Below, piece by piece: positions 1,196 through 16,257 of a DNA stretch of 64,000 bases. A model generated the notes under the pieces. The model was not told the origin of the DNA. It ran no database searches and saw only the letters and a program-made list of their open reading frames with translations. This DNA comes from an uncultured Gammaproteobacteria bacterium (GTDB taxonomy: Bacteria > Pseudomonadota > Gammaproteobacteria > CAWCPV01): positions 160,001 to 224,000 of the forward strand of contig CAWCPV010000014.1 of assembly GCA_963797555.1 (NCBI GenBank), written 5' to 3'. The stretch's first letter is position 1, and every line of letters starts with the position of its first letter. A program made the translations under genes and the position numbers.

Positions 1196-1242
1196 AGGCA
1201 GTGCGCTGCTTGGGTGTATGTGCGGTACTGCCATGACCCAGA

Positions 1243-3173
1243 CGGATCTTCAACAGTCCCTGAAGCAGATCCCCGTTCAGACAATGACTTGCGGCGGTCG
1301 CGAGCGGGCGTGGCACCAGGACGCCGCTGACCGAGAGGGGATAGTGGTTCAGGCCAGGACGGTGCCCTCCATGCGGCGCACCGTCGGCGGCAGGGCCACG
1401 CCGACGGCTTGGAAGACCTTGCCGCAGGTGCCCTGGGCTTCAGCCCGCAGGCGAAAGCGCTTGCCTTCGTGCAAGACCTCGGTCTCGGTGAGGGCATCGA
1501 GATCGCGCACGATGTCGTCCCACTCCAAGGACTCGCCACGGGCTTCCAGACGCGCATGGAGATCCTTGCGCAAGATGAGCGCCAGGAACGAGCAGAACAC
1601 GTGACCGCGGATGGTCTCGTCGCAGCGGTGGAAGATGGGCCGGGTGGCGAGCAGCGACTTGGTGGTGCGAAACAGCTCCTCCACCATCCACAGCTACTTG
1701 TACTTCAGTGCCACCTCGGCGGCAGTGAGGTCGGTGTTGGTGCGCAGCACCCACTTGCCGTCGTAGCGCGCTTCGCGGCGCACCGCCTGCTCGTCGATGA
1801 CGAAGCGCTCGCCCTGGCCTGCGAGGTACTTGCGAAAGCCACGGTTGCCGATGAGCGCCTTGTCGCCCTGCTTGAGCTTCTCGCGCAACGCCGCCAGGAT
1901 GGCCGCACGGTCGGCTTCGTCCTTGCGCTTCTGGGCCTCGTTGAGGCAGACCACATAGCGGCGGCCCTCGACGTTGACCTCCTGACCCGCAGGGGGGCAG
2001 GGTCCTGGGCGTGGGCACCGGGTGGATGGACCACGCGATAGCGGCCGGCCCCGGGCCAGGACCTCCTCGCGCACCTCCTTGTGCCGGCACATGCGCGCCC
2101 CCAGGATGTAGCGCCAGCCCTGCGCTTCGAGATCCCCGAGCGTGGGCTGGCTGATCATGCCGCGGTCGGCTACCACGCACAGCTCCCCGATAGCAAAGCG
2201 CGTGCGCAGGCGCTCCACGATGGGCACCAGAGAAGTGACATCGCAGGTGTTGCCTGGCCACAGCTCGCAGCACACCGGCTGGCCTTCTCCGTCCAACACC
2301 GCGCCCACCACCATCTGCTTGAGATCCGGCCGGTGGTCCTTGCTGTGTCCGTACTGACCGAGGCTCTCTCCGCCCGCGCCCTCGAAGTACAAGGAGGTGG
2401 TGTCGAAGAACACACGTCCAGGGTAGTGAACAGGTCGCGGCGGTAGGCGAACAGGTCATCCTCGATGAGGTCCTTGATGCACCGCGGGGCGAACGGTGTG
2501 CGCCCGGCCTGCGCCTCCGCCGGCAGCGCCTCCCCCAGCCAGGCCATGGCCCGGTACAGGTGGTGGAGTCGAGCGCTTCGGTTCCCGGCAGCCGGTACAG
2601 CTCCCGCCAGCGCTCGGCCGCGCAATCCGAGCCCGGTGCGAGCAATCGGTGCAGCACCGTCAGGAACACCGCCCGCTCCACGGGAAAGCCGAACTGCCGC
2701 CGCGCCAGGCGCCGCTGCACCACCGCCTGGCAGCCGGTCTGCGCCCACAGCCGCTCGAAGATGAGCGCCGGCCCCACGCGCTCCGAGCTCACCACCGGCG
2801 TCTCGCCTGCGCCATGGGCATCGAGCATCAGCAGCGCCTCGCTGAAGCGCGCCGCTGAGCGCACCAGAGCGTCCAGCTCACCCGAGACGAGCAGCGTATC
2901 TAACCGCCCTAGTGTAGCCACCACCCGCTGTCGGGAACGCCCGTCTTCCCAGCGGTTCTCGACGACCTGAAGATACACCCGCTGCCCGGACTGTTTGCGG
3001 CGTAAGAACATGGCGGCCTCCCAAGAATGCCACCATGCTTATAGCCATTCATGAACACACAGCAACCTGACATAGCACTATGCGTGGCACCATAAGTCGG
3101 CCGATTTCCGACCGTCCGCCAGTCACATGGCGCCTTGCGGGCCGTCGTACCCCGACGACTGTTGAAGATGGGG
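1243..3173 (-). mobile_element. IS1634-family insertion sequence
   Basis: Terminal IRs cggatcttcaacagtc (1243-1258) / gactgttgaagatggg (3157-3172); flanking direct repeat caga (1239-1242, 3174-3177); transposase inside. Confidence 0.9.
1349..3011 (-). CDS. IS1634 DDE transposase (several frameshifts)
   Basis: MFLRRKQSGQRVYLQVVENRW..ATLGRLD; FFDTTSLYFEG..GHSKDHRPDLKQ; VADRGM; VEELFRTTK..RPIFHR..IRGHVFCSFLAL. Confidence 0.9.
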
Positions 3174-3243
3174 CAGAGCTATACCGGCTGGAGAGGGACG
3201 CCAGGGACGCCCACAGGGGCCTATGGATGCTGCCCGAGGCGCA

Positions 3244-3429
3244 GCAGAGGGTGGCGCCGTGAGTGGAGGCATCGTGGGCGTTCGGAGCACTGAAATGCCG
3301 GAGGCTTTCGACGCCGCCTGCTCCGGACTCGAATGCGGGGTGACATGGGAGTCGGCGGGGAGAAACTCCCGGAAACTGCTTGGCTCTCTCTTTCATTTCG
3401 ATGGCGGCTTCCGACCCAGAGCAGCCATT
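3244..3429 (+). repeat. SNase-tail + spacer + palindrome module, copy 1
   Basis: Aligns with 9160-9351 and 13276-13470; ends in palindrome atggcggcttccgacccagagcagccatt (3401-3429). Confidence 0.8.
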
Positions 3430-3600
3430 GGGCAGCCGATAGATCCGCCGCTCATCGGCAACAGCCCGCGACAGAGAGGTTGCGCGCCCATTGGACCGCC
3501 AGCCGGTCGGCGTTGGCGAAGCGGATCTCCGGGTAGCGCTCGACCTCTGCCAGGCGCGCCTGCTGGACGGCGCGCTGTAAACGAGGCAAGGGAGCAGGCC

Positions 3601-3840
3601 GTGGCACCGGTTCAGATCTTCCTGTCCACCGTGAGTGCGGAGTTCGCGAGCTACCGCGATGCCCTGCGCCGTGACCTCGACCGCCCCAACGTCACGGTCA
3701 AGGTGCAGGAGGACTTCATCGCCACCGGCACCGAGACGCTGGACAAGCTCGACGACTACATCCGCCAGTGCCACGCCGTGACCACCTGGTGGGCAACATG
3801 ACCGGGGCGCTGGCGCAGCCGCCCTCGGTGGCGGTGATAC
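3601..3840 (+). pseudogene. DUF4062 (TIR-like) domain protein, truncated
   Basis: IFLSTVSAEFASYRDALRRDL..VKVQEDF..TLDKLDDYIRQCHAV(HLVG); cut by an IS91-like remnant. Confidence 0.65.
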
Positions 3841-3930
3841 CAACCGCCCACCCACGCCCTTGCCCCTGCTGCGGTGCGCCCATGGTGATCCTCTCGACCT
3901 TCGAGCGCGCTCATGCCCCGCGTGCACCGA
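3841..3930 (+). pseudogene. IS91-family transposase C-terminal remnant
   Basis: PCPCCGAPMVILSTFERAHAPRAP resembles the C-terminus of integrase-associated IS91-like transposases. Confidence 0.6.
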
Positions 3931-4059
3931 CTGGAAGATTGCTTTGGACCTGCTGCTTACCGTGGTCGGCGGTAGGCGCCTGATAAGCCTCGGAGGAGGA
4001 AACCGCGGGGGGCGAACGATGAGGCCAGCGCAGGGAGGGGTGCTATGGGGATTTGAATG
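3931..4059 (-). repeat. End of integrase/IS91-like element, copy A
   Basis: Near-identical to 14553-14682; contains oriIS-like ttcaaatccccatagc on the minus strand. Confidence 0.8.
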
Positions 4060-4376
4060 TTGCCGGCTGGTCTTGGAATGTCCCATATCAAGACACAGCC
4101 CGACCCGACCGGTGGGCAGAATATGGGGCGTGTGCGCTGAAGCGCATGCCCTAGCTCTCCGACATCTGGCGAAGCTGGCCCGCTTGGCCGGGCTCACGTC
4201 GTCATCGTTCCAGCCGCCTTGACCTTGGTCGCCGAACCACTGCCTCGACATATTCGTCCCCGCTGGATAGCCCACGGATAGCAAATTACCCGAGCCAACA
4301 GCGACGCTTGGGTCGCAACAACTGTGAGTCAATCTACGAGGAAATGCGTTACTGTCGGAGAGACCCTTCATGGGTC

Positions 4377-6040
4377 CTATCCGTTAGAAACGAGGATCTC
4401 CCGCAGTCTCGCCCAGCTTTCCTCAGGCAAGGTGCTGAGCACCCGCACCAGGCGGGCGTCGCCGCTCTTCAAGACCATGCTCCGAACCTTCGAGGCCATC
4501 TCCTCGCCCTTTTGTACTTCGTGCTCGTCCAGATCCATACCTCGCACGATCGCCTCAGCACGCAGTGCTTCGTCTAACGTGAGGGTAAAGGCGGCACTGA
4601 ACGAGGATCCGCATACTTGGCAGGATGTCGCCATGGCAGGGTTGAGGGACCCGCAGTCGCCGCAGGGCTTGAACTGCCGCTTGGCCGCGGGAAACTCGTA
4701 CCCGCATTGCGGGCAGGTGTTCTTCCCAAGCCCGCATTCATGGCGGCAGATCGGACACCGTTTCATTCGCGGCTCTGTGTCCCCAGTCCGAGCCCCCGGT
4801 GACATCTCGTCCTCGACCCGGCGGGCATACCCTTCCAGGATCTCGAACGAGGGCATAACAACATAGGCGCGCGTGTCATCGTCCGGTCCTGCGGTCCGCA
4901 CGACGCGGCCGATGGCTTGGCGGAGGGCGAGTTCCGTTAGCGCGTGCGGCAGGTACACCAGCACCCGAAGGCGCCGAATATCCACCCCTTCGGAGACCAT
5001 GGCCACCGACACAAGCCAGCGCTTGTCGGTGTTGCGGAACGCCTTGATCTTGGCGTCCGGGTTCGGCATCTGGCTGTGTACCAGCAGCGCCGTATCCCCT
5101 TCGAGGCGCTGGATGAGCGTCACAAAGTACTTGGCCATCTCGATGGACGGGGCGATCACGAGCCCACCTGCTGCTGGCATCCGATACCGTAGCTCCGTGA
5201 GCTTGGCCCCGGCCCATGCCAACATCGTGGCCTGATAACCATTGGCCAGCGGGGTCCTGTTGTCGGCCTCATGCTGTGGCGTGCACGCCAGCCGATAGAA
5301 ATCGAGCACCCGTTGCAGCCCGGGAATGCGGACGAGATCAGGGGGGAGTTCTGCCTTCTGTTTGCCTGAGACCCTGACCGAATGTCCGTCTTCGAGATCG
5401 ACCGTGAAATGACCCTCGTGACGGTGGAACGTCACGGGACGGCAGTAGCCGAGGTCAACCGCCTCTCCATACGTCAGGGTGTAGGTGCCTTCCTCGGGGT
5501 GGGCAATCGCGCCGGTGTCATCGTAGGCAAGCCAGACCGATTGAGCGCCGTCAGACCGGATCGGTGTACCCGTCAGGACCAGGACGAACGCTGCGTCCGC
5601 AAAGGCGCTGTCGGCGCTGTCCCCCACGCGGCCTCAATGGCGGCGTGGTGGTGCTCGTCGCAGATGACCAGCACGCGGGCATGGCGGCACATCGCCTGGA
5701 GGGCATCCTGCAGGCCCTGCACGGCAGCCCAGGTCGCGCAAATGTCGGTGCTCAGGGCGCCGATATCGCCGTCCCGCCCGGTGACCTTGCTCATGAAGCG
5801 TCCGGTGACGCGGCGGAAGTCCTCGGCCCACTGGTTGACCACCTCGGCCCGCGGGGCGATCACGATGACCCGGTCAATCTCGCCGCGCTCAATGAGGGCG
5901 TCGGCAATCGCGCTGGCGCCGATCGTCTTGCCGGAGCCAGGCGCAGCATTGATCAGGAAATGCCGGTCCTGGCGCTGATCGAGCAGCCAATGGAGCGCTT
6001 TCGTGAGTGCATTCTCCTGCCAGGGACGTAGCCGAATCAT
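4377..6040 (-). CDS. SF2 DEAD/DEAH helicase with C-terminal double zinc ribbon (frameshift ~5625)
   Basis: LRPWQ, NAAPGSGKT, DEHHH, LTGTPIRSDG, MVSEGVDI, QAIGRVVR, four CxxC pairs; frameshift at a C-run. Confidence 0.85.
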
Positions 6041-6249
6041 TGCTTGGATCCTTTACGCAAGTTACACGTCCTACACAGGGCCTGGCCGTTGGCGACCACC
6101 GTCGCGCCACCGCGGGAGAACGGCACGATGTGGTCCGCATGGAAATCGTCGGTCAATGGCGCGCCGCACCGCTGACATCGACCTCCTGCCACCCAGGCGA
6201 GGATACGGCGTTGGCGATGGCTGAAGCCGCGCCTCATTTGCTTACCCAA
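6037..6249 (-). CDS. Small HNH endonuclease
   Basis: CQRCG..FHADHIVPFSRGG..NGQALCRTCNLRKG; 4-nt overlap with helicase start. Confidence 0.9.
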   Translation of the reverse strand: MGKQMRRGFSHRQRRILAWVAGGRCQRCGAPLTDDFHADHIVPFSRGGATVVANGQALCRTCNLRKGSKQ

Positions 6250-6506
6250 TACTCGGTGAGCTGAATCTCACGCACCGGGAGATTGGCCGGGGGTTGAAAC
6301 TGGGCGTGCCGATTGACTCGGGCGACCGCGGCGGCATAGGAGACCAGCCCGGATTGGATCACCCAGCCGTCGCGTCGCATGTCCGAGATCACCTTGGTCA
6401 GGCTCGGTACTCCGAACAGCGTCAGGGACTCCAGGTGGGTGATCCGATTTCCTGCGGCCAGATGCTCCTTGACGGCCAGCACCATGCCATGCCGCATCGA
6501 GGTCAT
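6234..6506 (-). CDS. Small winged-helix/HTH protein
   Basis: VKEHLAAGNRITHLESLTLFGVPSLTKVISDMRRDGWVI; overlaps both neighbours. Confidence 0.7.
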   Translation of the reverse strand: MTSMRHGMVLAVKEHLAAGNRITHLESLTLFGVPSLTKVISDMRRDGWVIQSGLVSYAAAVARVNRHAQFQPPANLPVREIQLTEYWVSK

Positions 6507-7113
6507 ACCCAGGCCTCCGTGTCCAAGTCCGCCAACGAACGCCCGATGTCGACGCTGTCCCCGTCGTTCTCGCGGTCCCTGCAACTCGTCTCCAGCGCGA
6601 GCACCCGCCAGCCGCCGTCGGCAAACGCGCGGTCGAGCGGCCACATGACGAAGGGCAAGCCACCGGTACGCAGATCGAACTCGGGCTCGTCGAGGGGACC
6701 AGCGAAGAGTTCCACAAGGGATGCTGCGCTCGCCATGATCTGCCGGGGGCTGAAGTCGGCGTCCAGGGAACGCCGGAGTCTCTTGGTACACTGCGAATAT
6801 CTGCTGTGAGCGAGTCAATGTGCTCTCCTGAGGTCCGCCACCCTCAGTGGATCGATGTGCTACCGGGCACGAGCCGGTAGGGCCGAATTCCCCGATCACT
6901 GTCTTCGACCGGTCTAAGCGCCGCAACCGCTTGCGAATTGCCCCCCAATACCCCTCGGAAGACCTTGACCGGATCATCGGTCACGACCAAGCCGAGTTCG
7001 GTCCCCGCATACAGCAGCGCAAACGAGATGCGCGCCGATGGGATTACGTCATCATCCCGCAGGCGCTGGATCAGGGTCCGCAGCCGTTCCATCGGGTTGT
7101 CCTGGGAAAGCAC
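6503..7113 (-). CDS. Hypothetical protein, probably one gene broken by a stop/frameshift
   Basis: Two protein-like ORFs (6844-7113, 6503-6736); ATGA overlap with the HTH gene. Confidence 0.45.
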
Positions 7114-7166
7114 ATGCTCTTGGTTGCTCGCATCGTCTTGTATGGCGGCTCGCCACCTGATGGATG

Positions 7167-8092
7167 TCAGTCGTACTCAGCGACGGCAGCGAGATGCACC
7201 ACACGGTCCTCGACGGTCAACACTGCCCCAGCGATGTTCATCCCATGCAGCCGCAGGTGCTGCCCTTCCCCGATGACGGAATATGCTTCAACGGGCGTAG
7301 CGGCGACGCGCTGGAGTAGCGAGTGCACCTGATCGAGCGAGACTTCCCCGCGGGGGCCGTCCTCCCCATCGAGCGCATCCAGCGCATACCCCGCCATGAT
7401 CTTGCCGAACAGCTTCTTGAAGGTCTCCGGATGGTCGAAGACCTCGACTCCATTAAGCTGTCCGCGGACGGCAAGGACACGCCGACCTGCTTGGGCTCAG
7501 GTTGCAGGGACGTTCGATAGGCGTCGACGCCCCGACGCCGCTGCTCGTAAAGATCGCTCATCGCTTCGGTCCTCGATCGCGCACGCATGCGCGACGACTT
7601 GGCAGCGATGTCTTGCCAGATCGCCCTCTGGTCAGCCTGGCAGGAGCCGTGATGCCTCAAGTTCTGAGAGACCTGGTGTATCTTTGCCGCACGGGCGCTG
7701 GCATAGAGCGTACGGTCAGCCGACCGAAATTCCTGCGAGACGTACGCCCAGCGGCCCCGTTCAACACATGAGACGGGAATGCGGATCTTCTTGAGGGGAC
7801 CGACCAGGATCGTGAGGTTGACGATTCGGTTCTGACGAGCACCGACCAACTCTTCGCCGTCCACTAGCAACACGGGCTTGTCTGAATAGTTTTCGAACCA
7901 AAGCTCGGGGACGCTGCCGCCTTCCGACACCTCGGTGACCCTGGCGAGGCTCCGCGCCAATGCTTCATCGAGCGTTAGGTAGGAAGCAGGTATATCGGTC
8001 TCGGCAAACAGTGGCACCATAGTCACGGCGCGGAAGGATCGAGGGACGCCGATGCTTAGCCGTTGCAGGACTTCTTTGATTTGGACAACCAT
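7167..8092 (-). CDS. ARPP-1 / DUF6569-family protein (frameshift ~7475)
   Basis: YLTLDEAL..VTEVSEGGSVPEL..N..DKPVLLVDGEELVGARQNRIVN..IPVSCVERGRW; RBS ggagagga. Confidence 0.8.
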
Positions 8093-8124
8093 TGTTTCCT
8101 CTCCGATTCGGTACACCACTCCTC

Positions 8125-8140
8125 TGCAGTAGGCGTGCCA
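8125..8140 (-). promoter_or_regulatory. Putative sigma-54 promoter
   Basis: TGGCACGCCTACTGCA (GG-N10-GC) about 33 nt upstream of the ARPP-1 start. Confidence 0.55.
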
Positions 8141-8269
8141 ATGGCACACGAAAACCGAGGATGTTAAGCATGATCAACGCATTAAGGCCGTTTCGACCTC
8201 CATGGCGTTGACCGGCCTCAGCGACATAGGATAAGATTGTTTGCGAAACAGAATAGGCTTTACGTCCGG

Positions 8270-8340
8270 CATGGTCTTCGACGCCGCAGCAGCCGAGCCC
8301 GTGCCGGCCTTCGAATTCGGCCAGACCCTCTCCTGGTGGA
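8270..8340 (+). pseudogene. Possible IS91/ISCR transposase C-terminal remnant
   Basis: AEPVPAFEFGQTLSW resembles the P.P.YEFDQR..W terminus of IS91-family transposases. Confidence 0.35.
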
Positions 8341-8615
8341 CCTCGCGGCGCCACCCCTCAGCAAGAAGCACGGCGGCGTTCACGCAACTCAGCGGGAAGC
8401 ACCCCAACAGCAGCCCACAAGCAATCCCAGGGCGCAAGGCTGCGCCTGCATCGGGCACCCCGACACGGCCGTTTCGCAGACCGCATCAAATCCTGCCGAG
8501 GACGCGGTCCCGGTGCACGCCCCTGTGCGGCCCGCCGCCCAAGTTGGCAGGCCGCTAGCTTCCTTGCTAGGATTTTTAGGAAGCGCCGAAAAGCAACTTC
8601 CCCCAACGGATTGCG

Positions 8616-9107
8616 ATGAGATTTTCAGCTCTTTCGCTGTTTCTGGGCAGCCTGTCCAGCGCCGCATTGGCGGGTGGTCTGAGCGAGATCGAGCTTCTCG
8701 ACGGAAGCAAGCTGTATGGAGAGATCGTCTCCGTTCGGAAGGACATATACAGGGTAAAGTCTCCCAGTCTCGGTACCATCGACATCGACAGCTCCAAGAT
8801 CCGGCTGATTCGCTTGAAGCCGACTAGCGCGCAAACAGAGGCACAGACCGGGGTATCGACCGGAATCGATTCTGCGCGTCGCTCGGAGATCGAAGTCCTG
8901 CAGAAATCCATGGTGAGCGATCAGGCCACCATGAGTCTGATCACGTCTCTTCAGAACGACCCCGAAGTGCAGGCGCTGTTGAAAGATCCGGCGATCATGT
9001 CTGCAGTGACCTCCGGTGACGTGACGACCCTCATGGCCAATCCCCAGTTTCTCCAGCTCTTGCAGAATCCGAAGATCCAGGAGATCGAGAGGAAGGCCAT
9101 CCGCTGA
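8616..9107 (+). CDS. Exported hypothetical protein with STI1-like helical C-terminus
   Basis: Signal peptide; [15 protein letters not shown]; [29 protein letters not shown]. Confidence 0.7.
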
Positions 9108-9159
9108 AAGTCGCCTCCTCACGCATCATTCCGGCGCTGGATTCGGGATCTCGCGATGC

Positions 9160-9351
9160 GCAGAGGGTCGCACCGTGGGACCGGAGATGCGCCCTCACAC
9201 TGAAGGCCGCCTGCTTTCTACCTCGCCTGGTCCGGACCCGCATGCGGGGTGACATGGGAGCGGCGGAGAGAAACCCCCGGCACCCGATTGGATCTCTATC
9301 TTTTGATGGCCGCTTCCGACCCACAACGGCCATTCGCCTCCGGCACGACAT
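9160..9351 (+). repeat. SNase-tail + spacer + palindrome module, copy 2
   Basis: gcagagggtcgcaccgtggg ... atggccgcttccgacccacaacggccatt (9306-9334). Confidence 0.8.
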
Positions 9352-9374
9352 ACCAGGTTGGAGAAGGCTGAAGC

Positions 9375-9440
9375 TTGACCGCTCCCCGCCACAGGACTAC
9401 CTTCCTCCTACGCCACGTGCGGTTAAATTTCCTATCCTTC
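9375..9440 (+). promoter_or_regulatory. Orphan ISCR/IS91 oriIS-like end with outward sigma-70 promoter
   Basis: TTGACC-N17-TACCTT, then gcggttaaatttcctatcc directly before the cpo RBS. Confidence 0.6.
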
Positions 9441-9454
9441 AAGGAGACAATGCC

Positions 9455-10279
9455 ATGCCTATCATCACGACCAAAGACGGCGTTGAGATCTTCTACAAGG
9501 ACTGGGGCAAGGGTCAGCCCATCGTGTTCAGCCATGGGTGGCCGCTGTCGGCAGATGACTGGGACACGCAAATGCTGTTTTTCCTGCGTCACGGCTATCG
9601 CGTCATAGCCCATGACCGCCGTGGCCACGGCCGGTCCACGCAAACGGGCGACGGTCACGACATGGATCATTATGCTGACGATCTTGCGGCGCTTACCGCG
9701 CATCTCGACCTGAAGAATGCCGTGCATGTCGGTCACTCCACCGGCGGCGGCGAGGTGGCGCATTACCTGGGACGGCATGGCGAAAGCCGGGTGGCCAAGG
9801 CGGCGCTCATCAGTGCGGTGCCGCCGCTAATGGTGAAGACAGCGGCCAATCCGGGGGGCCTCCCCAAGGAAGTGTTCGACGGGTTGCAAGCGCAGCTCGC
9901 GGCTAATCGCTCGCAATTCTATCGCGACCTGCCAGCGGGGCCTTTCTATGGCTTCAACCGACCGGGCGTGAACGCCTTAGAGGCAATCATTCAAAACTGG
10001 TGGCGTCAGGCCATGATGGGCGGAGCGAAGGCACACTATGATGGCATCGTTGCCTTCTCACAGACCGACTTCACCGACGATCTCAAGAAGATCACGGTAC
10101 CGGTGCTGGTCATGCACGGGGACGACGATCAGATCGTTCCCTACGCTGATGCCGGGCCGTTGTCAGCGAAGCTACTGAAGAACGGGACGCTGAAGACCTA
10201 CAAGGGCTTTCCGCACGGCATGCCTACCACGCAGGCGGACACGATCAACGCCGACCTGCTCGCGTTCATCAAGGACTGA
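9455..10279 (+). CDS. cpo: Non-heme chloroperoxidase (alpha/beta hydrolase)
   Basis: [49 protein letters not shown]. Confidence 0.95.
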
Positions 10280-10390
10280 TTGAGGCCACCATCAGGAAAG
10301 CGGCCACACGCCGCCCTCGGCGAAGGGCGCGGAATCACGAGAGTGCGGGAGGGAAGCGGACACGGTGGCAGCCGGCGTGGCGAGCCCTAA

Positions 10391-10760
10391 TCACGCGGCT
10401 CTCGCCTTCTGCTGGCCTTCCCCTCCGGCTGCACGCCATCGATGAAGGCGATACCGGCGCGAACCAGCGTGAGCAGGCGTGCGCCGTCGAGCCGCCGCCA
10501 CCGCACCTGCGCCATGTCCGGCAGTTTGTGGGCCATCAAAGAGCCCCTTCGTGCGTGAGCAGGCGCCCTTCGTCACGCGCTGCCGCAGCCGCACCGTCGC
10601 GAACGGCATTCGATTACGTAGCTGGTCCGCAGATGCTTCCAGTGCTCAGCGGGGAAGTCGAAGAACGTGAGCAGCACGTCAGCGTCCTTCTCCAGGGTCG
10701 TGACGGCCTTCGGGTACTCTGGGACGTACTCGGTGCCGAACCGCTGTACCGCGTCAGGCG
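10391..10760 (-). pseudogene. IS256-family transposase C-terminal remnant
   Basis: YPKAVTTLEKDADVLLTFFDFPAEHWKHLRTS..IE..PFATVRLRQRVTKG. Confidence 0.85.
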
Positions 10761-10769
10761 ATGGCACAG

Positions 10770-10890
10770 CTCCAAGCGGGGAGATCGGGCAATCCCAGAG
10801 GCAAGCCCAAGGCGCCAAGGACAAACGCACCGGGCTGCGGGCGCTGCTCCAGCCCCATGCCGATGCGTTGGTGAAGAAGGCCGTAGTAAT
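10770..10890 (+). pseudogene. DUF5681-like fragment
   Basis: SGNPRGKP(K)GAKDKRTGLRALLQPHADALVKKAV. Confidence 0.5.
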
Positions 10891-11072
10891 ACCGGAATCA
10901 GTGCCCGGATTCGCGCGGAATCCGCAGTCCTCGGCCGCTTCCGGGGACTTCTGCCGAAGCGCAGCGGCCATCGCCGCTATCTGCGCCCGCCCGCGCCTGC
11001 GATCACAGCGTCACGTCTCGCCTCGCTCCACTTCCACTTCGGCAAAGCGACAATCCCCGAACGCCTTCCGCC

Positions 11073-11732
11073 CTATTCGTCCTTGAACCCCACCGCCCAG
11101 TGGCTCCCGTCGCAGAAGGGCTTGTTCTTGGAGGAGCCGCAGCGGCAGAGGGTGTAGTGCTCCAGCGAAGCGCCCTCACCGCGCGCTTGGCCGAGCAGCT
11201 CGATGCCGCCCGTGACTGCGTACGGCCCGTTGCGGGTGGCGGTGACCATCGGCTCGCGGTCCTGGTCCCGGTGCTCCACGCCGCCGACGGAATAGCTGAG
11301 CGCCCCCGAAGGACACCTGCGCACGATCCGGATGATTTCCTCCACCGTGGCACCGTCGGGGTCGATCCAAGGCTCCTCGCCCATGCGGAATACCTGCTTC
11401 AGATGCTCGGTGCAAAACCCCGCGTGAGAGCAGATACCGCGGTTGTCGTGGATGGTGATGCCCCGGCCTGGGTAATCGACCCGTTTGTTTGCGTTTCCGT
11501 CCGTAAGCTTCTTGTCACTGAACCCGTTGATGCTGTGGGTGCCATCGCAAAACGGCTTGTTCTTGGAGCCGCCGCAACGGCAGAGCGCCGCGCCTTTGAC
11601 GTTGGCGCAGGCTTGCCCGTTCCACCTGCGCAGATAGGGCACCGGCGCGGGGTCCAGATCGTACAGCAGATAGTAAGGCCCGTTGGGCACGCAGGCGATC
11701 TTGGGCTTTGCGGGAGCGTCGTCGACACTCAT
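11073..11732 (-). CDS. CDGSH iron-sulfur protein (two CDGSH domains around a ferredoxin-like domain)
   Basis: LCRCGGSKNKPFCDGTH; CSHAGFC..CPSGAL; LCRCGSSKNKPFCDGSH. Confidence 0.92.
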   Translation of the reverse strand: MSVDDAPAKPKIACVPNGPYYLLYDLDPAPVPYLRRWNGQACANVKGAALCRCGGSKNKPFCDGTHSINGFSDKKLTDGNANKRVDYPGRGITIHDNRGICSHAGFCTEHLKQVFRMGEEPWIDPDGATVEEIIRIVRRCPSGALSYSVGGVEHRDQDREPMVTATRNGPYAVTGGIELLGQARGEGASLEHYTLCRCGSSKNKPFCDGSHWAVGFKDE

Positions 11733-11817
11733 GTGCAGTCTCCGTGAGTAGTTCAAGGGATGCCGCCGGTGCTCCGGACGGGCTATCGCGTCTGACGCCA
11801 GCTCTGCAGGCGTGTTT

Positions 11818-12165
11818 TCAGCCCTTGGGCGTAATCTTGCCGGTGAATGACTGGGCTGCGACCTTGCCATCCCGCACGACGAACGTGTCCGTTCCCATCT
11901 CGTACACGTTCTCGGCAGTCTCGGCCGTCCACAGAATGTAGGCATAGTCGCCCTCGACGAACCGCTGCGTCATGCTGAACGTCGCGCCAGGTTTCCCAAA
12001 CTCCGCCAACATCGCTTGGAACAACGACCTAATCGCGTCGGCTCTGAGCGGTCCGTTCGGCGTGAACAGGACGGCACCCGGCGCATAGTCAGATAGGATG
12101 CCCGCGAGGTCGCCTTCGTCAAAACACTTCAAGTGGTGGTCTAGAACCTCTTTCGTCGAAGCCAT
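11818..12165 (-). CDS. SnoaL/NTF2-like protein
   Basis: EVLDHHLKCFDEGDLAGILSDYAPGAV..GTDTFVVRDGKV. Confidence 0.85.
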   Translation of the reverse strand: MASTKEVLDHHLKCFDEGDLAGILSDYAPGAVLFTPNGPLRADAIRSLFQAMLAEFGKPGATFSMTQRFVEGDYAYILWTAETAENVYEMGTDTFVVRDGKVAAQSFTGKITPKG

Positions 12166-12307
12166 TTCACGGTCGTCCTGTGTTAGCGGTACCACTTTGC
12201 GGGCTTTCGGGAGAAAACGTCCAGTAGTCAGGATGACTTCTCTGCCATCAGGCGCTTGCGGGTCGCCAAGGAGTGATGATGGGGGACCAAGGCGGACGCA
12301 GCGCGGG

Positions 12308-12775
12308 TCAACGCCGGCCTCCGCCACCATGTCCACCCCCTCCCCAGTGTCCACCACCTCCCCAGTGTCCGCCACCTCCCCAGTGTCCGCCACCTCCCCA
12401 GTGTCCGCCACTGCCCAAGTTTCCACCACCGCCCCAGTGTCCAGCACCACCCAAGGTTCCACCACCACCCCAGTATCCGCCACCGCCCCAGGGTCGACCA
12501 CCACCCCAGTGTCCAGCATCACCCCAGTGTCGGCCACCGCCCCAGTGTCCACCACCGCCCCAGTGTCCACCACCGCCCCAGTGGCCGTAGCCTCCTGGGG
12601 CGAAGACGACGCCGAGGCTCGGCCAGTCGTAGCCATAGTTGTAGAAATAGCCCGGCTCGGAGTACCCATAGTCGGAGTAACCGTAGCCGTCATACGGGCC
12701 AGGTCCGGTGGGGACCGCCACGCATCCGGAAAGAACAGCAGCAACGGTGACCAGCAATATTCGGAGGGGTCTCAT
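12308..12775 (-). CDS. Gly-rich lipoprotein with GGGGHW repeats
   Basis: Lipobox VLSGC, Tyr-rich linker, about 15 hexapeptide repeats. Confidence 0.75.
   Translation of the reverse strand: MRPLRILLVTVAAVLSGCVAVPTGPGPYDGYGYSDYGYSEPGYFYNYGYDWPSLGVVFAPGGYGHWGGGGHWGGGGHWGGGRHWGDAGHWGGGRPWGGGGYWGGGGTLGGAGHWGGGGNLGSGGHWGGGGHWGGGGHWGGGGHWGGGGHGGGGRR
12320..12590. repeat. 18-bp tandem repeat
   Basis: Unit approximately ccccagtgtcc(a/g)ccacc(t/g), about 15 degenerate copies. Confidence 0.9.
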
Positions 12776-12974
12776 GACAGGCTCCGGGGTTCCAGACTTC
12801 ATATAGAATGCGACACGGACGCAAGGCCGCCGGTTCCATCCCCTCGGTGCAGCAACTTGCCGTTGCGCCAACCGCAGCGCCGCCGACGCCTTGGCCAACA
12901 CCCCGGAGAGATCGGGAGCACGAAGCGAACCTGCGGACACGACGCCTGTCAACGCGGCCATGTCCGCCGGGGGG

Positions 12975-13326
12975 GGTTGACGATCCGGCTGGAGTGCATC
13001 GACGCCCCGGAACTTCGTCAAAACTCACGACAAGCGCTCGAAGGAGACTTTCGCGAACTTGGTATTCGGTCGTAGCGTCCGGGTAGAAGACCACGGCCGG
13101 GACCGCTACGGTCGGCTGCTCGGGCGGGTGCGCTACCGGGATCTCGACGTGAATCTGGAGCTGGTCAGGGAGGGTGCGGCATGGGTGTATGTGCGGTACT
13201 GCCACGATCCTGAGCTGTACCGGCTGCAGAAGGAGGCCAGGAGGCGCACAGGGGCCTGTGGGGGCTGCCGGAGGCGCAGAGGGTCGCGCCGTGGGAGTGG
13301 AGGCATCATGCGCGGGAGACGCGCTG
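12975..13326 (+). pseudogene. Thermonuclease (SNase), frameshifted and 5'-degenerate
   Basis: IRLECIDAPELRQ..GRDRYGRLLGRV..DVNLELVREGAAWVY..GLW..QRVAPWEWR. Confidence 0.85.
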
Positions 13327-13470
13327 ACTGACACCCCTTGCTTCGATCCGCTCACGCGGACTGTGGGTGCTGTGGGAGGCCGGGGGAAAGAAACCGCGGC
13401 GGACCCGATTAGCTCTCTTTTTCGATGACCGCTTCCGACCCACAACCGCCATTCGCGTCCGGCACGACAT
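13276..13470 (+). repeat. SNase-tail + spacer + palindrome module, copy 3
   Basis: Palindrome atgaccgcttccgacccacaaccgccatt (13425-13453); the next 17 bp are shared with copy 2. Confidence 0.8.
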
Positions 13471-13815
13471 CCGCAGAACGGTGGCGGAGCACCCACTCTG
13501 AACCCAAGAAAGTGTGTTCCCGGCGGACATTCAACGACGATAGCTTGACCCGCCCCAAGAGACCGCTGACCCGGACCCTTGCCTTCGCCCGGCGGAATAT
13601 CGGCCGGAGTTGGCCTGCGAGTTGATCAGAGGGTGACTTGGCAGTCCCCAAGGGGCTGCCGGAATACTTCGCCTGCCCAACCCAGATCCTTCTCGACCTG
13701 GCACCCACTTCCTCCCGCACTCTGTGCCCGGCAGAATGTATTAGTATCATGTGATATCCTTATCAATAGGAACCTCCGTCAACGGGAGCAACAAACCTAC
13801 TGGGAGGACACGGTC

Positions 13816-14091
13816 ATGACTACGCTGATTATTGCTGTTGCCACTCTTTTCATCGTCGGTATCGCGTCGTACAGCCTGTTCCGCGACTCTGACCCGTTTG
13901 CCAGCCACCGCAGGGCGATGCACCGCGCCGGGTTTACCTTCGTCAGTTCGGCGCCTAACGCAAGCACAAAGCCCAAGCCCTATGAAGGCGGGGGCCGGGA
14001 GCGTCTGCACGCTGAGGGCTGGGAGCCGAGGACACTGAATCTCACCGACCAAGGGTGGGCGAACCGTCGTCGGAGCAAGGCCGCGATGTAG
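13816..14091 (+). CDS. Small membrane-anchored hypothetical protein
   Basis: RBS ggagg, N-terminal TM helix, followed by a terminator. Confidence 0.55.
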   Translation: MTTLIIAVATLFIVGIASYSLFRDSDPFASHRRAMHRAGFTFVSSAPNASTKPKPYEGGGRERLHAEGWEPRTLNLTDQGWANRRRSKAAM

Positions 14092-14156
14092 CGCTCCTTG
14101 CGCCCCGAGAGACCTCGTACCCACCCGTGGCGTGCACGCTCAATGCGGCGCACCAG

Positions 14157-14182
14157 CGGCTCCTTCGGGAGCCGTTTTTTTT
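14157..14182 (+). terminator. Rho-independent terminator
   Basis: cggctcc-ttcg-ggagccg + T8. Confidence 0.85.
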
Positions 14183-14501
14183 GGGGAGTCAGGCGGTACA
14201 CTGGGTCAGACCGTGAGAAGCCGCTACGAAGTCGTCCACTGCAACTGGTACAACGCCCGACAGAATCGAGTGAGGCAGGAGAAAGGGCAGCCCCGTGTGC
14301 AACATGGGTGAGTTGGTCCCCCTGATCGCGTGGTGGACCGCCTGGGCCGTCGTTCGAGCGGGTGAGCGCCGTCCGTTCCCAGGCACCTCGGGCGGCGGCC
14401 TGTTGCCGGAGGCAGGCGAGGTAGTCTGCGCCAACAGCAGCGTCGGCGGACTTACTGTTGCCACCCGTGAGATCGTCCCGAGCCCCAAATAGCCGCTTCT
14501 G

Positions 14502-15713
14502 TTAAGGGTTATCAGATGCCTACCGCCGTAGAGGCGATCGAGAGACGCTGCGCTGGAAGGTGGCTTTGGAGCTGCTGCTTACCGTGGTCGGCGGTAGGCG
14601 TCTGATAAGCCTCGGGGGAGGAAACCGCGGGGGGCGAACGATGAGGCCGGCAGCGGGAAGGCGCTATGGGGGGATTTGAATGGAACCTATGGGTCGCAGA
14701 GGGGGTGGGTGGGACGGTGCAGGAGAGGTGTGCAGAGTGCTGCGCGCAGGGAGTGGCACCGACGCCACGCCGGCCCGTGGTCGCGGAAGATGTCCGCGAC
14801 CTCCAAGGCCTGCCGCGGCACAGCTCAGGTGCGCGGCGGCTCCTGTGGCGTCAGCCGCTCCAGGGGACTGGTGACCTCACGCAGGGTGCGGGTGGCCACC
14901 CGGGCATAGAGCGCGGTGGTCTCCAGCTTCTTGTGCCCGAGCAGCACCTGGATGACACGGATGTCCTCCCGGTGCTCGAGCAGATGGGTAAGCTATGTCT
15001 GAGAGTATGCAGCGACACCCGCTTGGCGATCCCGGCCTCAGCGGCGGCGGTGTGGCAGGCGCGGTTGAGTTGGCGGGTCGACATCGGATCGAGCGGGTCC
15101 TGGCCGGGGAAGAGCCAGCCGTGGGGCAGCATCTTGCCGTGCACATGCGCCTCACACCACCCTTGGCGCAGCAGCGCGAGCAAGGTCGGGGAGAGCATCA
15201 CGTAGCGGTCCTTGCGCCCCTTGCCTTGTTCAACGCGGATCACCATCCGCTCGCTGTCGATATCGTCGACCTTGAGCGCCACCACCTCCGAGGTGCGCAG
15301 CCCCGCCCCGTAGGCCACCGCCAGCGCCGCCTTGTACTTCAGCCCCGGCGCCGCCTCCAGCAGGCGCATGACCTCCTCGGGGCTTAACACCACCGGGAGT
15401 TTGCGCGGCACTCGCACATGGCTCATCTTCGCCATCAGCTCGCCACGCCCGAGGGTCACCTCGCAGAAAAACCGCAGCGCCGTCACCGCCGCGTTCAGAC
15501 TGATTCGGGAAACACCGCTCTCGGTCAAGTGCAGCTGGTAGCGGCGCAGGTCCTCCGCTGTCGCGGTATCCGGGGAACGCCCAAGAAAGCGCGTGAAGCT
15601 CTTCACCCAGCGGATATAGTGGCTCTGGGTCTTCTCTGCGAGAGCTTGCGCAGGCGCATGTCCTCGATCATGCGCTGACGCAACGGGCTCACCGGTTTAT
15701 GCTCGATACTCAT
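14502..15713 (-). mobile_element. Internally deleted tyrosine recombinase + IS91-like transposase element
   Basis: Integrase, first ~21 codons of the transposase (VPRQALEVADIFRDHGPAWRR, 14821-14759), oriIS-like motif and terminal 20-bp inverted repeat (14509-14528 / 14589-14608). Confidence 0.75.
14825..15713 (-). CDS. Tyrosine recombinase of the IS91-associated type (frameshifted)
   Basis: SPLRQRMIEDMRLR..GRSPDTATAEDLRRYQLHL; YGAGLRTSE; GKGRKDR; HTLRHS; LLGH..ETTALY. Confidence 0.9.
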
Positions 15714-15724
15714 GGGTCTGCTCC

Positions 15725-15810
15725 GACGGCTTCCGGGTGCGCCACTGGGTGTTTCCCGGTAATGCGGTGGATGTCAGCACGGTCGAGCAGATCAAGCGCG
15801 ATCTCGCAGC
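15725..15810 (+). pseudogene. IS1634-type transposase fragment
   Basis: DGFRVRHWVFPGNAVDVSTVEQIKRDL. Confidence 0.6.
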
Positions 15811-16257
15811 GAGTGACTGTTCTTGGCCGGTTCCGGTCACTGGAGCCGCTGTGGGCAGCGATCCCTGAAGCTGGAGGCGAGAAGGCGGTTTCGAGGCGCC
15901 CCGTGCACGCCCCGTCCCGACGTGGGGGGGCATCCGGGCATACCGGGGGCGGGCATGGGTATGCAGCGCGTAGCCCGAACGGTGGGGTCGGCGTATCGGT
16001 GGTAGCGGAGTTGAGAGCATCCTGGCGACCGCTCGGAGGCGAGGGCTCTCGAACCCGACAGCCTGCGGTCCCCCGCTTGAACAAGGGAAGTCGACTTCAC
16101 AGTGCGATCGGCACCCTGTACAATCGGTCAGCCTTTCGTGAACCGCAGTGTCTCCCTCGCCTTCACCGGGCTTGCGGATGCCGGCCCAGCGCGCGGAGTC
16201 TCGAACATTCCGGAGCAAACTCAAGTCGCCGAGGTGACCTCGTCGGTATCATCCGAG

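Follow-up and report, generated by a model that had tools for sequence, protein, structure and literature searches.

Introduction

Elements of the IS91 family, many of which carry a recombinase gene, and their ISCR relatives mobilise neighbouring genes, and their targets have been described as four bases, the classical IS91 target being the tetranucleotide GTTC/CTTG. Here, we analysed a stretch of 64,000 nucleotides from an uncultured Gammaproteobacteria bacterium of the lineage CAWCPV01 (GenBank assembly GCA_963797555.1, contig CAWCPV010000014.1, positions 160,001 to 224,000), referred to below as the window. Its first 16 kb contain recurring palindromes and the remains of an element that couples an integrase gene to an IS91 transposase gene. 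The original prediction, made from the sequence alone, held that the palindromes are recombination sites at which this integrase/IS91 pair inserts and accumulates cargo, in the manner of attC arrays although with a recombinase that is not of the IntI type. We find that each palindrome is the core, 30 bp long and conserved, of a dispersed repeat specific to this lineage. This core is probably a near-optimal landing site of an IS91 subgroup in which an IntI-like tyrosine recombinase gene lies upstream of the Y2 HUH transposase gene. We regard the core as a preferred insertion site because element ends sit in cores, because a consensus built from insertions in other genomes matches it, and because cores rank very high when the genome is scanned with that consensus.

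Results

The palindromes are the conserved core of a dispersed repeat

A 30-nt degenerate pattern was run against the window, with 100 shuffles as the control. It matched without mismatches at exactly three places (cores 1 to 3, Table 1), against 0.00 expected, and the palindromes proposed at 3401, 9306 and 13425 are therefore real and non-random. The core reads GATGRCCGCTTCC/GACCCACAACSGCCATT; here and below a slash within a sequence marks a junction or dividing point, and C-numbers denote the contigs of the source genome (5.35 Mb in 20 contigs), the window lying on C14. As free-standing sites, however, the palindromes did not hold up: each is merely the core of a much longer repeat. Delimited by repeat finding, BLAST and nhmmer, this repeat consists of a decayed staphylococcal-nuclease gene, a non-coding tail of ~150 nt, the core and, in several copies, a right part of ~125 nt (R1) that terminates in ..AACGACGATAGC. 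Genome-wide, nhmmer gave 17 matches to the repeat, 11 of them with the core. Four copies are near full-length (window 13102-13497, C9:265215-264815, C17:37130-36724 and C14:371615-372000). The core is the best-conserved block of the repeat, with a pairwise identity of 0.90-0.91 against 0.44-0.84 elsewhere. Its central 14-mer has 99 loose matches in the genome, 11 of which lie in repeat context.

The gene in the repeat is a member of the staphylococcal nucleases, with an SNase domain (PF00565) at 12981-13328, and each of the four long copies has it frameshifted. Across copies, the tail does not keep one reading frame; thus, we consider the tail non-coding, and a small protein encoded there was ruled out on the same grounds. 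An origin of the tail from the IS91 element was also rejected, as 12-nt half-sites were the sole matches. A structured RNA fared no better: no Rfam family reached its gathering threshold in the window, the two weak matches in 12900-13700 were at chance level, and RNAalifold neither found covariation nor predicted the palindrome itself. Copy 1 of the repeat is split by an insertion sequence (IS), breaking off at 1242 and resuming at 3174.

The repeat was found in none of 30 genomes of the same class, and a search for the nuclease in other species gave nothing close, with one locus at 41% identity. A 23-mer of the core had no match in the collection scan, and an exact 21-mer occurred in one genome and two metagenome contigs (L018-L020, unrelated contigs).

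Folded as single-stranded DNA, cores 1 and 2 form hairpins of 7-8 bp and core 3 remains unfolded (energies in Table 1). Substitutions in the core arms are uncompensated in the repeat alignment, and covariation was found for 0 of 17 RNAalifold pairs. No consistent extended attC-like fold was obtained either, with z values of -1.5 to +0.9 for folds of 85-97 nt; an attC-like fold of the core plus R1 was tried and discarded, since the C2 copy alone folded as hoped and the other copies failed. The site at 15812, proposed as a related palindrome, has TGGCCGnTTCCG in common with the left half of the core and a moderate target score, but with no nhmmer match and an unremarkable fold it turned out to be a weak look-alike (Table 1).

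The conservation of the core above its surroundings could also mean that it belongs to the host, which would keep it for a cellular function, for instance as a site bound by a protein, a motif associated with terminators or a REP-like palindrome (REP, repetitive extragenic palindromic), and that it is only incidentally close to IS91 ends. A terminator-like stem (GGAGAG..CTCTCT, followed by T's) does precede the core, and a sigma-54-like GGCACG-n4-nnGC follows it (seen by eye). We consider this explanation very unlikely. Only about 11-14 copies exist, inside a repeat of 370-600 nt, unlike REPs; REP sequences and bacterial interspersed mosaic elements consist of very many short extragenic palindromes and go with a RAYT transposase (no search aimed at one was made), whereas each of the 11 full cores here lies within such a repeat. 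The Rfam results speak against it as well, and so do two observations described below, namely the identical core base at which two of the three upstream element ends are found and the very high rank of cores under an externally built matrix.

The integrase and IS91 element in the window and on C7

The element copy in the window has the downstream end TG/TTAAGGG, a 24-bp inverted repeat (14505-14528 / 14589-14612) and an integrase gene at ~14851-15713 that is frameshifted after RHS. Compared with a fuller copy on C7 (L001), in which the integrase gene is followed by an IS91 transposase gene, ~1.37 kb holding tnpA has been replaced by 76 nt, and another transposase gene, present as a fragment, cuts off the upstream end at 15724. 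With its transposase gene gone, its integrase gene broken and one end lost, the window copy is a dead remnant. The predicted integrase/IS91 pair is thus only half present in the window, where a frameshifted integrase gene stands but an IS91 transposase gene does not; the full pair is on C7. The C7 transposase carries the Y2 HUH domain (PF04986, Y2_Tnp, E 1.8e-64) and the zinc-binding N-terminus (PF14319, Zn_Tnp_IS91, E 2.9e-33) of the IS91 family, and reaches 425.9 bits on NF033538, whose cut-off is 125.

On the integron-integrase model, the integrase scored 102.8 bits (window) and 107.8 bits (C7), well under the cut-off of 265. The recombinase is therefore integron-integrase-like, and the claim that it is not of the IntI type was supported. 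In a passage of the preprint 10.1101/542381, the recombinases of IS91 elements are grouped with IntI in an 'integron-like' subgroup that does not have the extra helices of IntI.

Reduced and rearranged forms were also seen. At C4:50866-50990, a miniature element of ~125 nt consists of the IS91 downstream-end hairpin alone, with TTAA on both sides. In a Thiohalocapsa metagenome-assembled genome (MAG; L088, 1022-1110), two tandem copies stand 47 nt apart, and the spacer contains a perfect 7-bp inverted repeat, GCGGTCG..CGACCGC. Marsh-metagenome contigs from two runs join 14372 to 15683 and omit 1310 nt; with 32 letters on the far side, this joint is not interpretable.

Element ends in the genome and their position in cores

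Read in the sense of the transposase, the ends of the element are ..^nnnGGACTAAACCGCTCGCGCGG upstream and ..GGCATCTGATAACCCTTAA(CA)^ downstream. Three upstream ends were found in the genome. Two of them, on C5 and C7, adjoin the right half of the core, and both do so at one identical base of its loop, CTTCC^GACC; on the + strand, the junctions read ..GTCCTCT/GACCCACAACGGCCATTCGAG (C5) and ..GTCCTCC/GACCAGAACGGCCATTCGAG (C7). Beyond the junction the two flanks differ, one being R1' and the other R2, and both have element-free paralogues (R1' at C9:262139; R2 at C18:38414, C14:146578 and C2:186988). On C3, the remaining upstream end adjoins a degenerate version of the core with 12 of 19 bases matching. 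The comparison of element ends that had been suggested as a check thus gave the same core base for two of three upstream ends, but a degenerate site for the third.

All five downstream ends in the genome lie within the core or R1-family repeats, and all five have CCGC/GCGG 3-4 nt outside the end. The junction in the window is as originally described, with a left half-site abutting the end of the element: it reads atagccgcttc (14489-14499)/tg/ttaagggttatc (from 14502), and TG/TTAAGGG is a true element end, common to four other copies in the genome. The adjoining flank, GAAGCGGCTAT in the transposase sense, agrees with the consensus of downstream flanks and, at 10 of 11 bases, with the core arm. 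At C14:69157, the downstream end adjoins the right arm and the R1 of a tail in the opposite orientation, and the downstream ends of C7 and C4:50988 lie inside a repeat of 95 nt, related in inverted orientation to the right arm plus R1. This 95-nt repeat (..CCGTATGACCGCTTCCAGAGTGGACC..GGCCGGAAATGGCCGATTC) occurs at C15:70027, C18:73893, C13:3052, C4:51041 and C7:144598, and holds two of the IS91 downstream ends. A placement of the C7 element between both halves of one core was rejected because the outer 'left half' belongs to a separate, intact copy of the 95-nt repeat.

No direct repeats were seen at the element flanks, and no clean filled/empty pair was found in the data. Public sequencing runs gave no contig spanning an empty site; even the richest of them contained no more than 0.33 of the sampled words, in contigs that were short.

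A target motif from other genomes

Searching with the transposase gave 79 loci. Most came from Chromatiaceae-like Gammaproteobacteria (80-86% identity, Thiohalocapsa and MFD MAGs among them) and from Alphaproteobacteria (about 65%), and both end motifs of the element are conserved across the two classes. Upstream flanks were readable at 49 loci and both flanks at 28 sites, which are not one per genome and hence not independent. In the transposase sense, the 28 external insertions give the target motif GKCCGC-n3-GGGCC^RaAgCnGaC, whose outer parts are complementary. Information in the flanks peaks at -13, -12, -10, -3 to -1, +3, +5, +7, +9 and +12. As in the IS91 family, a short conserved target abuts one end: the upstream flank ends in GGGCC or GGGTC (G at -3 in 22, C at -2 in 24 and C at -1 in 19 of the 28). 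Two MAGs, one alphaproteobacterial and one of Rhodobiaceae, each contain six identical copies with differing flanks, and the variable flanks of the former still obey the motif. Because identical copies have different flanks that follow it, the motif belongs to the target and not to the element. The core fits this external motif in both orientations, with a 1-nt offset, and some external flanks resemble the core arm (^AAAACGGCCATTC in L065, ^GAATGCGGTCATTCGCGG in L094).

To test the motif independently, the source genome was scanned with a matrix derived solely from the 28 external sites, covering 21.38 million positions on both strands and with and without a 1-nt gap. Scores of at least 12 were reached by 515 positions and scores of at least 15 by 40. 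The 14 cores or core-like boxes include 11 with a score of 12.9 or higher, and cores take six places in the top 40. A different multi-copy sequence (ggcggcgatcggcg..cataaccgtcatagccg; C6:89906, C7:593202, C3:114522, C20:6816, C17:11212 and C13:115729) is also among the top 40. That the palindromes are sites used by the integrase/IS91 pair is accordingly supported for insertion, by the end positions in cores, the 28-site consensus and the high matrix rank, but not for the accumulation of cargo.

Flank pick-up by read-through is known for IS91-family elements and Helitrons. The half-sites might therefore travel with the element, as its true termini or as read-through flank, and their adjacency would then reflect the common descent of the copies instead of a choice of target. 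The 22 nt that C5 and C7 have in common beyond the upstream end would fit this, as would the homologous outer block lying 22-48 nt away from four downstream ends and the tandem pair of L088, which retains both arms in its spacer; moreover, a review passage states that rolling-circle transposases often miss the termination site. Past those 22 nt, however, C5 and C7 have flanks from two distinct families, each of which exists without an element, and the flanks are less alike (~55-60% by eye over the inner 45 nt) than the element end (87% over 99 nt). In addition, the six identical copies within one MAG keep the motif in different flanks, at least 11 cores stand without any element, and a matrix built from outside sites picks out the cores. 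Taken together, we judge a shared origin of the half-sites unlikely.

Several observations nevertheless weigh against the core as the preferred landing site. Within this genome, no element was shown to be bracketed by the two halves of one core, every copy is truncated or rearranged, the flank common to C5 and C7 may have been inherited rather than chosen, and the target reconstructed for C7 has a low score (2.6 to 6.5). Outside it, the exact core was not found beside the 79 external elements, save for two loose look-alikes on the reverse strand (L061, L086), and no transposase open reading frame (ORF) lies within +/-2 kb of the 21-mer in L020 (L018 and L019, contigs of ~1.1 kb, were not checked for one). 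Hairpins in general were not enriched among 29 reconstructed targets (mean best stem 4.38 against 4.29 in controls), and a stem of fixed geometry, found in 5 of 28 sites against a control rate of 7% (P = 0.04), is marginal and was chosen after looking.

Cargo between the cores and the integron question

The prediction that the sites insert and accumulate cargo like an attC array was not upheld. Most full cores examined follow the same nuclease remnant and not different cassettes, and successive cores in the window are separated by 5.9 and 4.1 kb that contain several genes in both orientations, which is not the layout of a cassette array. These genes encode a split helicase, an ARPP-1 protein, a hydrolase, a CDGSH protein, a SnoaL protein and a Gly-rich lipoprotein; they are ordinary neighbours and not captured cassettes. 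The attC motifs GTTRRRY/RYYYAAC are absent from the core as read, core 3 is unfolded and covariation is lacking.

The genome does have a true integron integrase at C7:47556-48500 (TIGR02249, 502.5 bits, 363-aa open frame), with no core nearby. A GTTAGGC-type core sequence lies at C7:44520, ~3 kb upstream of it, and a partial second copy of an integron integrase at C3:989422-989835. A further tyrosine recombinase gene, encoding 210 aa, is located at C18:37715-38344 on the minus strand, its start ~70 nt from a core-like box (..TTTAAACGACCCTGA/ACGGCCATTCGG). A fragment of this gene is present at C6:83994-84209, where the upstream region diverges after GACCCTGA.

At least five left and three right contexts are joined at the core, which leaves some room for recombination there. 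Relative to the IS91 junction, the one defined by the C6/C18 pair is shifted 8 nt rightwards. One could propose that the core and its relatives (R1, 'type-2' repeats) are recombination sites of a non-IntI, integron-like system, in which the IS91-borne or the C18 recombinase would read the site as IntI reads attC, guide the element in and swap the DNA to the left and right. Such a system would explain why at least five left and three right contexts are joined within a single 8-nt window of the core; even so, we think it quite improbable. Little credence is likewise given to the cores being attC-like sites at which either tyrosine recombinase, that of the IS91 element or the 210-aa protein of C18, exchanges or accumulates DNA modules. 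The contexts meeting at the same box could be read in this way, and the two junctions 8 nt apart would resemble the edges of a crossover region; the C18 gene does start close to a box, and IS91 recombinases are the nearest relatives of IntI. Against this stand the absence of arrays, with the same nuclease remnant preceding most full cores examined, the genes on both strands between cores, the missing attC motifs in the sequences read, the lack of a consistent extended fold and of covariation, the location of the true IntI away from any core, and the frameshifts in both recombinase copies beside the window-type element.

Neighbouring features of the window

The coordinates of the repeat copies, element remains and adjoining fragments are collected in Table 1. 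Among the genes between the cores, the ResIII/Helicase_C helicase is split into two frames (4377-6040, minus strand) and the ARPP-1 domain protein is encoded at 7238-8149 (minus strand); together with the DUF4062 fragment (3223-3801), they resemble defence-island debris. At 12278-12635 there are 14 tandem 18-nt units, whose minus strand encodes the GHWGGG repeats of the Gly-rich putative lipoprotein (ORF 12308-13021). Two further repeats were noted: one of ~70 nt just upstream of the hydrolase gene (9368-9439), with four copies on C3, and one of 132 nt (10754-10884), with copies that are 93-94% identical on C12, C13 and C20.

Table 1 Features of the first 16 kb of the window, in window coordinates
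Feature	Position	Strand	Evidence
Repeat copy 1, 5' piece (nuclease remnant)	1196..1242	+	matches 13167-13213; nhmmer hit C14 161198-161242
IS with frameshifted DDE transposase, interrupting repeat copy 1	1240..3178 (approximate)	-	PF01609 on 1694-2413; multi-copy, 92-97% identical on C9, C4, C3
Repeat copy 1, 3' piece: nuclease 3' end, tail, core	3174..3431	+	nhmmer E 5.5e-40; alignments
Core palindrome 1	3400..3429		DNA fold -7.0 kcal/mol; target score 15.8
DUF4062 gene, upstream region and N-terminal fragment, directly adjoining core 1	3428..3836	+	paralogues, each behind a core-like box of its own, on C2 and at C14:146-147 kb
IS91 transposase gene fragment	3840..3928	+	85.6% identical to C7:145184-145095
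Fragment of the integrase+IS91 downstream end region	3931..4077	-	90.5% identical to C7:144717-144863; 89% to 14553-14682
Repeat copy 2: last nuclease codons, tail, core, start of right part	9155..9354	+	nhmmer E 1.7e-28
Core palindrome 2, perfect 7-bp arms	9305..9334		DNA fold -7.2 kcal/mol, z -2.7; target score 15.5
Repeat copy 3: nuclease pseudogene, tail, core, R1	12971..13546	+	PF00565 E 1.3e-15; nhmmer E 1.8e-105
Core 3, degenerate arms, no hairpin	13424..13453		DNA fold -0.1 kcal/mol; target score 12.9
Flank ATAGCCGCTTC, look-alike of core left arm, beside element end	14489..14499		transposase sense GAAGCGGCTAT
Transposase-less integrase+IS91 derivative, upstream end missing	14500..15724	-	alignment to C7 copy
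Fragment of another transposase gene, truncating the element	15724..15805	+	89% identical to C5:213209-213128 and C16:44237-44156
Weak look-alike (AGTGACTG..CGGTCACT), outside the repeat family	15812..15841		no nhmmer hit; fold z -0.3; target score 10.1

Discussion

Our model suggests that the element would move as IS91 does. A nick would be made at the upstream end, beside a short GGGYC flank that may be the counterpart of the GTTC/CTTG of IS91, a single strand would be displaced as far as the hairpin-bearing downstream end, and insertion would then occur without target duplication. The symmetric target, with arms GGCCG/CGGCC ~14 nt apart, may be read as a single-stranded DNA hairpin or as a duplex dyad, and the IntI-like recombinase is a possible reader.

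With moderate confidence, we consider the core to be a target of an IS91 subgroup whose target is long and dyad-symmetric. An extended target for integrase-bearing IS91 elements was not described in the literature searched, which included 10.1101/542381, PMC5714925, PMC9229058 and PMC9345347. If the core is such a landing site, a long, symmetric and conserved target would make these elements home to particular repeats, and the spread of the elements and of the DNA they carry could be predicted from the sequence of the recipient genome. The core would also offer a concrete substrate for testing the role of the IntI-like recombinase. Furthermore, insertion at a preferred site would account for the patchwork of repeats and broken genes over the first 16 kb of the window without a new gene-capture system.

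Helitrons are eukaryotic, carry a Rep-helicase fusion and insert at AT dinucleotides, and in these respects they are unlike the element described here. They are alike in being of the rolling-circle type and in having a hairpin near one end, in Helitrons the 3' end, and Helitrons often capture flanking DNA (PMC4778049 and a review). IS1111-attC elements of the IS110 family and class C-attC group II introns, both named in a passage of PMC9229058 that also mentions an IS91-like element, ISShvi3, adjoining an attC site, resemble the present element in inserting at a recurring palindromic site; the site here, however, is not an attC, and the enzymes differ. Integrons are similar in having a recombinase of the IntI-like subgroup and an imperfectly palindromic target, whereas the recombinase here falls under the IntI cut-off, and cassette arrays, attC core motifs and a conserved fold are lacking. 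The same order of genes has been annotated on the Methylomonas koyamae plasmid pFW12EY, which carries a site-specific integrase and IS91 transposase pair. The closest likeness is to the IS91 family (IS91, IS801, IS1294 and the ISCR elements), with which the element has in common a Y2 HUH transposase with an N-terminal zinc domain, the absence of the usual terminal inverted repeats, a short conserved flank at one end and a hairpin near the other, and the occurrence of truncated and one-ended derivatives. It departs from that family in its flank information, which is dyad-symmetric and extends over ~27 nt instead of a tetranucleotide.

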